A stretch of 10,032 nucleotides of DNA. Source: Escherichia coli (GTDB lineage: Bacteria; Pseudomonadota; Gammaproteobacteria; Enterobacterales; Enterobacteriaceae). The position numbers and the translations under genes are program-made. The notes beneath the pieces were generated by a model. It was given only the letters and a program-made list of their open reading frames with translations, ran no database searches and was not told the origin of the DNA. This document shows positions 9,010-10,032 of this stretch, one piece after another. The first letter of the stretch is position 1; each line of letters starts with the position of its first letter. The stretch lies in the NCBI RefSeq assembly GCF_036507355.1, contig NZ_AP027880.1; one strand, given 5' to 3'.

Positions 9010-10032
9010 ATGAAGTTTCGAGTCTTTTGCTTGGCAGCACTCCCCTGCTTTTCGGTTTCAGCGCAGTCTTTAGAAAATTTAGGGTCCTTGACGGCCGACC
9101 AACAGGGAGCCAGCTCTGCCACTGCCGTGAGCGCGGACGGCAGCACGGTCGTGGGGGAGGCTGCTTACGATCTCACGGCAGGCGGGACGGGCAGGCATGC
9201 ATTTCGCTGGACCAGTGCGGGCGGCATGCAGGACTTGGGCGACTTGACGGCCAACCAACAGGGATACAGCTCTGCCACTGCCGTGAGCGCGGACGGCAGC
9301 ACGGTCGTGGGGGGGGCTGCTTACGATCGCACGGCAGGCGGGACGGGCAGGCATGCATTTCGCTGGACCAGTGCGGGCGGCATGCAGGACTTGGGCGACT
9401 TGACGGCCAACCAACAGGGATACAGCTCTGCCACTGCCGTGAGCGCGGACGGCAGCACGGTCGTGGGGGGGGCTGATTACGATCGCACGGCAGGCGGGAC
9501 GGGCAGGCATGCATTTCGCTGGACCAGTGCGGGCGGCATGCAGGACTTGGGCGACTTGACGGCCGACCAACAGGGAGCCAGCTCTGCCTATGCCGTGAGC
9601 GCGGACGGCAGCACGGTCGTGGGGGGGGCTAATTACGATCGCACGGCAGGCGGGACGGACTATCATGCATTTCGCTGGACCAGTGCGGGCGGCATGCAGG
9701 ACTTGGGCGACTTGACGGCCAACCAACAGGGATACAGCCATGCCACTGCCGTGAGCGCGGACGGCAGCACGGTCGTGGGGTGGGCTAATTACGATCTCAC
9801 GGCAGGCGGGACGGGCAGGCATGCATTTCGCTGGACCAGTGCGGGCGGCATGCAGGACTTGGGCGACTTGACGGCCGACCAACAGGGAGCCAGCTCTGCC
9901 TATGCCGTGAGCGCGGACGGCAGCACGGTCGTGGGGTGGGCTAATTACGATCGCACGGCAGGCGGGACGGACTATCATGCATTTCGCTGGACCAGTGCGG
10001 GCGGCATGCAGGACTTGGGCGACTTGACGGCC
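9010..10032 (+). CDS. HAF-repeat autotransporter, N-terminal part: Sec signal peptide plus six 52-aa HAF repeats. The 3' end runs off the window and is probably continuous with 1..1245.
   Basis: ATG at 9010 in frame 1. MKFRVFCLAALPCFSVSAQS is a typical signal peptide (A-Q-S cleavage motif). From 9097 six 156-bp units each encode …SATAVSADGSTVVG…YD.TAGGTGRHAFRWTSAGGMQDLGDLTA. The open frame reaches the last base of the window, exactly at a unit boundary. Confidence 0.85.
   Translation, partial: MKFRVFCLAALPCFSVSAQSLENLGSLTADQQGASSATAVSADGSTVVGEAAYDLTAGGTGRHAFRWTSAGGMQDLGDLTANQQGYSSATAVSADGSTVVGGAAYDRTAGGTGRHAFRWTSAGGMQDLGDLTANQQGYSSATAVSADGSTVVGGADYDRTAGGTGRHAFRWTSAGGMQDLGDLTADQQGASSAYAVSADGSTVVGGANYDRTAGGTDYHAFRWTSAGGMQDLGDLTANQQGYSHATAVSADGSTVVGWANYDLTAGGTGRHAFRWTSAGGMQDLGDLTADQQGASSAYAVSADGSTVVGWANYDRTAGGTDYHAFRWTSAGGMQDLGDLTA
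9097..10032 (+). repeat. Tandem array of six 156-bp coding repeats (units start at 9097, 9253, 9409, 9565, 9721, 9877), over 95% identical
   Basis: Direct inspection; period 156 bp (52 codons). The array ends exactly at base 10032 and resumes at base 1. Confidence 0.95.

Follow-up and report, generated by a model that had tools for sequence, protein, structure and literature searches.

The window analysed here is an entire circular plasmid of 10,032 bp from Escherichia coli. It carries a gene for an HAF-repeat autotransporter of 755 amino acids, which starts with an ATG at position 9010, spans the circular junction and ends with a stop codon at 1245; the translation is unbroken from position 10032 into position 1. 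The gene opens with a putative signal peptide; then come seven complete HAF repeats of 156 bp and a degenerate eighth, and the protein closes with a helical linker and the autotransporter barrel (Table 1). Six of the full units, each exactly 156 bp long, stand before the junction, and the array runs on in frame across it into the seventh unit and the degenerate eighth. Genes elsewhere on the plasmid encode RepA_C, RHH, ParA, resolvase, Rep3, MobA_MobL, and ParE-like domains. A promoter scan of the plus strand found no convincing sigma-70 site upstream of the gene. The GC hairpin and T run downstream of it are, from their sequence, likely a terminator, and fall within the stretch 8985..1418 that is common to the plasmid and a Castellaniella contig. 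Sequences prone to slippage also occur in and near the gene: runs of G8, a direct repeat of GTGGG, and, upstream, an 8-bp repeat of variable copy number.

Table 1. Features of the HAF-repeat autotransporter locus. Letters for each unit are the residues at codons 1, 5, 7, and 9 / 21, 23, 26, and 32-33; L numbers are comparison alleles.
Feature	Position	Strand	Basis or variant
HAF-repeat autotransporter gene, 5' part (resumes at position 1)	9010..10032	+	translation
Putative signal peptide MKFRVFCLAALPCFSVSAQ	9010..9066	+	sequence; pLDDT <50, residues 1-18
N-terminal strand SLENLGSLTA	9067..9096	+	DSSP strand E20-25 (full model), E4-7 (passenger model)
HAF unit 1 (predicted blade 1): D-A-S-T / E-A-L-GR, hybrid type	9097..9252	+	
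HAF unit 2: N-Y-S-T / G-A-R-GR	9253..9408	+	codon 21 GAG in L001, L011
HAF unit 3: N-Y-S-T / G-D-R-GR	9409..9564	+	
HAF unit 4: D-A-S-Y / G-N-R-DY	9565..9720	+	
HAF unit 5: N-Y-H-T / W-N-L-GR	9721..9876	+	codon 23 GAT in L007
HAF unit 6: D-A-S-Y / W-N-R-DY	9877..10032	+	codon 7 TTT in L007
HAF unit 7: D-Y-S-T / G-D-L-GR; codon 46 GAT, L50F, A52S	1..156	+	codon 7 CAT in L007
Degenerate eighth unit, three strands, end MRAFIYKA	157..267	+	codon 5 TCC here, GCC in L008
Predicted alpha-helical linker, residues 443-473	304..396	+	AF2 helix H443-473
Predicted autotransporter beta-barrel, residues 484-754, and stop codon	427..1245	+	PF03797, Foldseek; protein end ...YSARF
GC hairpin GGCGCT-CAA-AGCGCC, then T6 (likely terminator)	1312..1332	+	sequence

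The HAF repeat model TIGR02913 matched eight stretches of the protein with 166 bits (cut-off 22.65; E = 1.1e-49), and by the tandem-repeat criterion of NCBIfam for this model the protein belongs to the HAF family. Towards the C terminus, PF03797 was found at residues 499-729 (E = 1.3e-14), and Foldseek returned EstA (3kvn, E = 1.5e-14), NalP (1uyn), EspP, and BrkA. From its sequence, the N-terminal segment would act as a Sec signal, and the linker helix would, by analogy with known autotransporter structures, thread the barrel pore. Signal peptide, passenger, linker helix, barrel, and C-terminal aromatic residue together predict a classical (type Va) autotransporter. Comparison of the passenger with the PDB by sequence gave chance-level matches only. 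The AF2 model of the passenger is an eight-bladed beta-propeller in which four-stranded antiparallel blades form a closed ring, and on the strength of this model the 156-bp repeats are confidently predicted to encode the blades. The strand SLENLGSLTA that precedes the first unit is similar to strand four of a unit (MQDLGDLTA) and in the model would complete the last blade by velcro closure.

The sequence-only reading had described the differences between units as confined to few codons and as changing an amino acid in every case, the rest of the unit being identical, and all of this was borne out. When the six units in 9097..10032 are aligned, 140 of the 156 columns are without difference and 16 vary; the variable columns lie inside nine codons, and every difference among the six units is nonsynonymous. 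The codons concerned are 1 (D/N), 5 (A/Y), 7 (S/H), 9 (T/Y), 21 (E/G/W), 23 (A/D/N), 26 (L/R), 32 (G/D), and 33 (R/Y). Seven of the variable columns are first, eight second, and one a third codon position. Were 16 columns drawn at random, they would land in nine or fewer codons with P ~1.2e-5, and at most one of them would be a third position with P = 0.014. The two covarying types that had been described are also present, as D-A-S-Y...N-R-DY in units 4 and 6 and as N-Y-S/H-T...GR in units 2, 3, and 5, and so are the hybrids, represented by units 1 and 7. The sole synonymous change sits, as reported before, in the unit at 1-156 (codon 46), which also has two amino acid replacements near its end (L50F and A52S). 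The variable codons form two clusters, which are bordered by stretches of invariant framework 33 nt and about 57-69 nt long.

On the predicted blade, codons 1 and 5 fall in the D-A loop, 7 and 9 in early strand A, 21 and 23 in late strand B, 26 in the B-C loop, and 32-33 at the start of strand C. In terms of strand topology, all of them lie at the D-A / B-C loop end of the propeller, and the A-B loop (ADGS) and the C-D loop (SAGG), both invariant, lie on the opposite face. Topology in the model and residue composition thus suggest that the variable residues are exposed on one face of the propeller; propellers usually bind their ligands at the face of the D-A and B-C loops. The same positions stand out across the family. 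In 941 HAF units from distant homologs, entropy was highest at positions 26, 21, 33, 31, 32, 7, 9, 27, 23, and 5, in agreement with the variable set of the window (Mann-Whitney P = 9e-5), and Tyr was the commonest residue at positions 5, 7, 9, and 33. The polar and aromatic composition of the variable positions appears typical of binding sites. Variation at these positions recurs in Castellaniella and in two metagenomes as well as in the distant-homolog units, and the pattern is repeated in a second lineage that uses other framework codons (L010).

Within the window, dN was 0.49 at the variable codons, and both dN and dS were 0 in the framework. The closest Castellaniella unit belongs to an allele with little divergence outside the variable codons; against it, the window units gave a variable-codon dN of 0.61, a framework dS of 0.005, and a C-terminal dS of 0.042, all by a counting method without recombination correction. 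This corresponds to an omega of ~15 at the variable codons (dN about 0.6 versus a C-terminal dS of 0.04), a value that is approximate because the orthology of units between arrays is uncertain. The comparison of dN and dS across units and homologs that had been suggested earlier therefore places dN far above dS at the variable codons in close alleles. Concerted evolution is able to depress framework dS.

Further alleles were gathered through protein clusters and contig look-ups; direct searches with framework DNA gave zero matches in genome contigs for an exact 38-nt pattern and zero in metagenome contigs for a 31-nt pattern. An independent E. coli assembly, L008, also of 10,032 bp, holds the whole array inside its contig and differs from the window by one nucleotide over the entire plasmid, with all seven full units in agreement; the array and the junction are therefore not assembly artefacts. 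Comparison of alleles between isolates, likewise proposed in the sequence-only reading, showed that E. coli plasmids separated by 0-1 backbone SNPs carry five codon changes, all of them at variable codons (P ~4e-4 each for this restriction between near-identical plasmids). In four of the five, one of them a two-nucleotide change from TCT to CAT (P = 6e-4 by chance), another unit has the new codon at the corresponding position, with the caveat that several comparison arrays are short-read assemblies, in which mis-phasing between units would mimic gene conversion. The L007 variants were seen again in a second assembly, P0133, and the GAG variant of unit 2 is present in both L001 and L011. L002 (AP027811.1) was left out of the array comparison for its many indels. 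Copy number also varies, with 6 full units in L003, 7 in the window and L006, and 8 in L001, the array of which is frameshifted/disrupted; in the extra unit of L001, a hybrid, the 5' portion comes from unit 7 and the 3' portion from unit 6. Variable sites 3-15 nt apart were found in all combinations, and therefore very short conversion patches or recurrent mutation are needed.

We consider the best explanation, with a probability of roughly 70%, to be diversifying selection on the binding face of the propeller, acting on an array whose units are amplified, cross over unequally, and exchange short tracts by gene conversion. The framework would be kept uniform, and the number of blades altered, by recent amplification together with unequal crossover and gene conversion that still go on; diversifying selection on the binding face would retain and build up differences at the variable codons, and short conversion tracts between units would reassort them, with point mutation as the ultimate source of new variable codons. 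The variable face would serve a binding function, probably adhesion or aggregation. Selected surface positions kept distinct despite gene conversion, one of two possibilities raised from the sequence, are favoured by the hypervariability across the family, the excess of dN over dS, the placement on one face by topology, and the residue composition. The other possibility, a recombination mosaic of two repeat alleles, stands in so far as hybrid units, the hybrid extra unit of L001, and the donor-matched changes speak for recombination between units; two parental alleles do not account for the three states at each of codons 21 and 23 or for the many further codons of related arrays. A rival that we hold to be possible, at odds well below even, is that the array is a self-templated contingency locus, in which RecA-dependent micro-conversion between the units of a single ORF, together with gain and loss of units, would generate combinatorial binding faces at a high rate. 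Such a locus would be comparable to antigenic variation from cassettes, except that a single gene would supply both donors and acceptor. It is consistent with the five variable-codon changes between plasmids with 0-1 SNPs elsewhere (four donor-matched), the hybrid unit in L001, the slippage-prone G8 runs, GTGGG direct repeat, and variable upstream 8-bp repeat, and framework blocks that at 33 nt and ~57-69 nt are long enough for homologous pairing. However, slow ordinary recombination sampled over many isolates also fits these data, short-read mis-phasing may account for some of the apparent conversions, and the arrays of the window and L008 are identical or one nucleotide apart. Since two independent isolates match this closely, the array is not wildly unstable. 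If the locus did behave in this way, clonal carriers would continuously show differing propeller surfaces. Surface variation of this kind, borne by a mobilizable plasmid, would be new for bacteria, and the G8 runs, GTGGG site, and upstream 8-bp repeat may add on/off switching to it.

The remaining readings fared less well. On a neutral one, the variable positions are surface residues free of constraint, the array is a recent amplification, and the two types are a mosaic of two old alleles; this would accord with the division of the units into two types plus hybrids and with the weak conservation of these positions across the family. However, such sites would change at close to the synonymous rate, and their dN of 0.49-0.61 compares with a framework dS of 0-0.005 and a C-terminal dS of 0.042; codons 21 and 23 have three states, with many further codons in related arrays, and a mosaic of old alleles predicts synonymous framework differences, of which the six units of the window have none. 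Neutral drift is thus unlikely and was rejected because dN lies far above dS. We judged very unlikely a targeted hypermutation, in which a diversity-generating retroelement or another codon-directed mutator would rewrite the variable codons. Multi-nucleotide changes restricted to certain codons would be expected from such a process, 15 of the 16 variable columns are at first or second codon positions, like the AAY codons of retroelement templates, and the few synonymous changes in L003 adjoin variable codons (codons 20, 24, and 26). On the other side, no reverse transcriptase was found among the plasmid genes or near the Comamonas paralogs, and no copy of the unit was found outside the array in the window. 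Whichever unit is assumed to be the template, its adenines account for no more than 43% of the differences, and 24 A columns are invariant, synonymous sites included. Related arrays would require AAA-type template codons at 7, 9, 21, 27, and 33, which would often yield stop codons. Adenine mutagenesis by a retroelement was accordingly rejected, for want of a reverse transcriptase, template repeat, or adenine bias. Errors or a collapsed or chimeric consensus of the repeat array would explain the variants as artefacts of assembly, and short-read contigs do often break or collapse in the array (L005, L007, and P0124), with indels of the long-read kind in L001 and L002. This is extremely improbable and was also rejected: two independent 10,032-bp assemblies are concordant on all seven full units, the variable positions recur in Castellaniella, the two metagenomes, and the 941 distant-homolog units, and all variants are in frame and alter an amino acid.

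Near-identical repeats that differ at a few residues are known from several systems. The repeats of Xanthomonas TAL effectors differ at repeat-variable diresidues that set their specificity, and they undergo recombination and repeat gain and loss. Unlike the present protein, they are type III effectors with a DNA-binding alpha-solenoid, each 34-aa repeat of which has two variable residues, and no homology is implied. Diversity-generating retroelements share with the array codon-confined, multi-nucleotide, nonsynonymous variation in a ligand-binding protein (binding being inferred here) and differ from it in their reverse transcriptase, template repeat, and adenine specificity. Closer parallels are seen among fungal NLRs whose internal repeats are highly conserved, notably those encoded by the HNWD (het-d / het-e / het-r) WD40 genes of Podospora anserina (PMC1805685, PMC2873952, and PMC4986451). 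As here, HNWD propeller blades are built from tandem repeats that are near-identical in DNA, few codons per repeat are under diversifying selection (here by the counting method), and repeat number varies between alleles, with concerted evolution and reshuffling. The selected codons are grouped around a conserved residue in both (7/9 and 25/27 in HNWD; 5/7/9 and 21/23 here), and the HNWD codons lie in the D-A loop and B-C turn at the top face, the placement that strand topology suggests for the present protein. The differences are that HNWD blades are WD40 and those here HAF, that HNWD proteins are cytoplasmic STAND/NLR receptors whereas the protein here is predicted to be extracellular and displayed by an autotransporter, that the former are fungal and the latter bacterial and plasmid-borne, and that HNWD blades have four variable codons compared with about nine here; the RIP mutagenesis of fungi is inapplicable. 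Because its blades are HAF and their partner domain an autotransporter barrel, the protein is an analogue of the HNWD family and not a member. A mode known from fungal allorecognition, identical blades that carry a hypervariable face under diversifying selection, would be at work in a plasmid-borne surface protein found in several assemblies of E. coli.

WRAP domains and other recently amplified, repetitive bacterial beta-propellers (PMC6805158 and PMC9218822) share with the array near-identical blades, which imply recent or repeated amplification, differences in blade number among close homologs, and an excess of nonsynonymous over synonymous differences between blades. Frameshifted or disrupted arrays are described in these papers and are seen here in L001. 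The same surveys centre on the origin of the fold rather than on hypervariable codons of a binding face and contain no occurrence of HAF repeats or autotransporters.

HAF repeats are common yet almost unstudied: 3,979 of the 8,000 candidates scored matched at E <= 0.001, and no functional study of the repeat was found in the literature searched. An eight-bladed propeller, as modelled for the HAF passenger, is an unusual fold for an autotransporter passenger, and the residues that probably form its binding surface can now be named from the model. The array is a natural repeat scaffold with defined variable positions, akin to designs made in protein engineering. It is predicted that the variable face binds a variable partner, such as a host, a phage, or a neighbouring cell, and that the array reassorts in a recA-dependent manner. 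A "HAF family autotransporter" has been named in Chlamydia pneumoniae (PMC2873915), and XatA of Xylella fastidiosa takes part in autoaggregation, biofilm formation, and virulence and makes E. coli aggregate (PMC3426408). Leads towards a possible homology with XatA are an LGxL motif (LGDL at codons 47-50 of the unit here), repeats of ~50 aa, the AT-1 architecture, and a common homolog in Pseudomonas protegens/fluorescens (P0030), which appears both in the match list here and in the XatA paper (PMC3426408). Unlike the array here, XatA is not hypervariable: strains that cause Pierce's disease are reported to share a completely conserved XatA (PMC3426408), and its repeats have diverged further from one another than those here. 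A further homolog, P0003, is present in Bordetella avium.

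Tandem Repeats Finder reported one array with a period of 156 bp, which runs to the end of the window at 6.1 copies with 94% matches and no indels. Repeat phase and reading frame are both preserved where the closing bases of the window (…GACTTGACGGCC) meet its opening bases (GACCAACAGGGA…), and when the plasmid is read as a circle a single ORF of 755 amino acids crosses the junction (see the table below). An independent E. coli contig of equal length (L008; GCA_012892915.1) carries the whole gene internally and differs from the window by a single nucleotide; the junction and array are therefore real, and an assembly artefact is ruled out by independent replication. 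The remaining genes of this small plasmid encode RepA_C, RHH, ParA, resolvase, Rep3, MobA/MobL, and ParE-like proteins. Among public records, the nearest are plasmids of E. coli sampled from human faeces in Viet Nam, and partial copies of the plasmid were found in several further E. coli assemblies.

Coordinates of features on the circular plasmid and, in the last row, on a Comamonas metagenome contig
Feature	Coordinates	Strand	Remark
Period-156 array	9087-10032		to window end
HAF autotransporter ORF	ATG 9010; stop 1243-1245		across junction
HAF unit starts	9097, 9253, 9409, 9565, 9721, 9877, 1		
Degenerate eighth HAF unit, start	157		
Similarity to Castellaniella contig	8985-10032 and 1-1418		
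8-bp tandem repeat	8929-8950		
Runs of eight G	9309-9316, 9465-9472, 9621-9628, 57-64		codon 21 GGG
Direct repeat GTGGG, GTGGG	9775-9787, 9931-9943		codon 21 TGG
56-nt direct repeat	2023-2078, 6088-6143		exact; one beside each replication module
Replication modules, further coordinates	2176-2284		
	2447-3442	-	
	6288-6986	+	
54-nt inverted repeats	4473-4526, 5576-5629		
Resolvase gene	4558-5190	-	between inverted repeats
EexN-like lipoprotein gene	5202-5456	-	between inverted repeats
Two HAF autotransporter paralogs (L009)	7012-9207, 10001-12196		

The gene product is a classical autotransporter, and its passenger is predicted to be a HAF propeller of eight blades, as judged from domain matches, structural models, and fold comparison. 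Eight HAF repeats were called by NCBIfam TIGR02913 (166 bits; cut-off 22.65), and Pfam placed an autotransporter beta-domain at residues 499-729. AlphaFold2 modelled the whole protein with a pLDDT of 90 (57 homologs) and the passenger alone with a pLDDT of 95 and a pTM of 0.93, and Foldseek found structural matches for the C-terminal half in the autotransporters EstA, NalP, EspP, and BrkA; no solved relative was detected by sequence search. Each unit has four strands in the predicted structure. Closure of the ring by the N-terminal strand is suggested by the mature N-terminus (SLENLGSL), which is similar to a unit's fourth strand, and by the degenerate last unit, in which three strands are predicted.

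Among the six units in 9097..10032, 16 of 156 columns are variable (seven at first, eight at second, and one at third codon positions), and these are confined to codons 1, 5, 7, 9, 21, 23, 26, 32, and 33 (P ~1.2e-5 for 16 columns falling into nine or fewer codons under random placement). The amino acid is altered by 100% of the differences. The unit at 1-156 adds the sole synonymous change (codon 46, GAT), together with L50F and A52S. The sequence-only reading had described differences that are nonsynonymous and confined to few codons, two covarying unit types plus hybrids, and a single synonymous difference in the unit at 1-156, all of which is borne out here; its interpretation as selected variable surface positions also appears essentially right, with exposure deduced from the predicted topology. 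In the models, strands A to D span unit positions 6-11, 17-25, 31-39, and 43-48, such that codons 1 and 5 lie in the D-A loop, 7 and 9 in the first half of strand A, 21 and 23 in the last half of strand B, 26 (in relatives also 27) in the B-C loop, and 32-33 at the start of strand C. The D-A and B-C loops of a propeller blade share one face; the A-B (ADGS) and C-D (SAGG) loops, placed on the opposite face, are invariant. By topology, all variable codons would thus sit at one end of the blade barrel, where their residues are predicted to be exposed.

The same positions stand out across the HAF family. In 941 HAF units from ~120 more distant homologs, all outside the close clade, the highest entropies were found at positions 26, 21, 33, 31, 32, 7, 9, 27, 23, and 5, with a mean of 3.31 bits at the window's variable positions versus 1.53 elsewhere (Mann-Whitney P = 9e-5). 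The most frequent residues at these positions are Tyr, Trp, Ser, Arg, Asp, Asn, Glu, and Gln, with Tyr the top residue at 5, 7, 9, and 33, and the conserved positions hold small or hydrophobic residues. The composition at the variable positions is typical of exposed binding sites.

Selection was gauged against a Castellaniella ginsengisoli gene (L003) with six full units, which has the signal-peptide sequence (87/87 nt) and repeat framework of the window and differs from it over the C-terminal 310 codons by a dS of 0.042 and a dN of 0.013. Nearly all of its variable codons are unlike the window's, often by 2-3 nt (e.g. AGG, CGA, CTG, TCG, and GCG). Variable-codon dN was 0.49 over all pairs of window units 1-6, with a framework dS of 0, and 0.61 between each window unit and its closest L003 unit, with a framework dS of 0.005; relative to the C-terminal clock, omega is ~15 at the variable codons. 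Neutral loss of constraint is rejected because it would give a dN close to dS, and variable-codon dN is far higher. The same dN/dS values, together with sites that have three states, contradict a neutral two-allele mosaic. In a second lineage (L010) with 153-bp units, the framework codons are quite different from the window's and identical between units, which differ by 1-3 nt at codons 7, 9, 21, 23, 32, and 33. A metagenomic allele (L006) has additional codons; its B-C loop carries insertions of one codon, and its framework is polymorphic at some synonymous sites.

Reassortment is visible between near-identical plasmids. L008 is identical to the window over the whole plasmid except at codon 5 of unit 8 (TCC/GCC). 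L001 (NZ_AP027824.1) has no backbone mismatches, differs at codon 21 of unit 2 (GGG/GAG, also seen in L011), and carries one extra unit. L007 has no mismatches in 1,336 bp of backbone and three substitutions (unit 5 codon 23, AAT to GAT; unit 6 codon 7, TCT to TTT; unit 7 codon 7, TCT to CAT), all present in a second assembly (P0133). All five substitutions fall at variable codons (P ~4e-4 per comparison set), and four, including the two-nucleotide change, yield a codon found at the equal position of another unit (chance P = 6e-4); some of the assemblies compared are short-read, in which mis-phasing could mimic conversion, and two variant sets recur in separate assemblies. Since the framework is identical, exchange between units is visible only at variable codons. 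Each event is accounted for by conversion over short tracts (less than about 60-70 nt), with new mutation needed solely for TCT to TTT. In the extra unit of L001, the 5' part of unit 7 is joined to the 3' part of unit 6, as expected from unequal crossover; this unit has lost one GTGGG direct-repeat copy, and the resulting frameshift, which splits the gene in the record, could reflect either true inactivation or an error in sequencing.

We propose that unequal crossover and conversion would amplify the blades and keep them uniform, as argued by the identical frameworks, variable unit number, and hybrid units. At about nine codons per blade, differences would be kept and built up by diversifying selection that acts near the D-A and B-C loops, on one propeller face, a step supported by the excess of dN over dS, the family-wide hypervariability, and the residue composition, with exposure predicted from blade topology, and short conversion patches would redistribute these differences among blades, as the donor matches indicate. 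A codon-targeted mutator of unknown kind acting on the array is considered unlikely and is not required by the data, and a diversity-generating retroelement failed all three defining tests (reverse transcriptase, template repeat, and adenine specificity). A bolder reading takes the array for a contingency locus, a self-templated device working at high frequency; it is compatible with the data and is considered unlikely.

The evolutionary mode proposed here is itself already known. TAL effector repeats offer a looser analogy; among known systems, the WD40-repeat family HNWD of Podospora anserina comes closest. It shows concerted repeat evolution, variable repeat number, and positive diversifying selection at four codons per repeat, all on the top interaction face; codons 7 and 9 belong to the D-A loop and 25 and 27 to the B-C turn, and a conserved residue lies between the members of each pair (PMC1805685; PMC2873952). 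The HAF array is similarly arranged: codons 5/7/9 surround S6 and A8, and 21/23 surround A22. It is an analogue of the HNWD family rather than a member, because its blades are HAF and not WD40, the protein is extracellular and joined to an autotransporter barrel, the gene is bacterial and plasmid-borne, and about nine codons per blade vary rather than four. Surveys of recently amplified bacterial propellers describe near-identical blades, an excess of non-synonymous inter-blade differences, and disrupted arrays (PMC9218822, PMC6805158); these two surveys make no mention of HAF repeats or autotransporters. The function of the HAF autotransporter is probably binding. Judged by its description, XatA of Xylella fastidiosa is likely a relative: also a classical autotransporter, it has six ~50-aa repeats with an LGxL motif, is predicted to form a propeller, and acts in autoaggregation, biofilm formation, and virulence (PMC3426408). 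What is new is the setting, namely an almost unstudied repeat family and a propeller as autotransporter passenger on a plasmid circulating in E. coli.

Several further observations were made on the alleles. The sole synonymous differences between the L003 array and the window framework, seen in L003 units 2-4, lie in or adjoin variable codons (20 GGG/GGA, 24 TAC/TAT, and 26 CTC/CTA); the codon 20 difference recurs in L006 and L010, and L006 has synonymous framework variants elsewhere too (codons 14, 17, and 35). The exchanged tracts may be short patches rather than single codons. Alleles >90% identical in the barrel domain (L003, L006, and the further close alleles P0121 and P0124) have 0, 1, 6, 7, or 8 full units; some short alleles are probably collapsed short-read assemblies, and if they are real, blade number would range from 1 to 9. 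Two tandem chromosomal paralogs of 731 aa each are present on the Comamonas contig (L009), on which no reverse transcriptase was found near them.

The start codon is preceded, at a distance of 60-80 nt, by 2.75 tandem copies of an 8-bp repeat (CTTTGGGG), and L011, a further E. coli assembly of this plasmid, has three more copies; the repeat could alter promoter spacing and switch expression. Inside the ORF, a run of eight G (GTG GGG GGG GCT) occurs where codon 21 is GGG, and a GTGGG direct repeat where it is TGG. Such G runs are typical slippage sites; no variation in their length was seen among the compared assemblies. Similarity to the Castellaniella contig extends from 25 nt before the ATG to 173 nt past the stop, the G+C content of the gene is ~53-60% versus 63-69% for the plasmid backbone, and the DNA upstream is entirely different in L003 and L006; the gene seems to be mobile as a cassette. 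Two replication modules are present on the plasmid: Rep3, and RepA_C, which is accompanied by four iteron-like copies of GGGGGGGTCCGATTTAACG. Each lies beside a copy of the 56-nt direct repeat, an arrangement that suggests a cointegrate of two replicons. The 54-nt inverted repeats are 98% complementary, and the ~1 kb that they flank may constitute a small module that is mobile or invertible.
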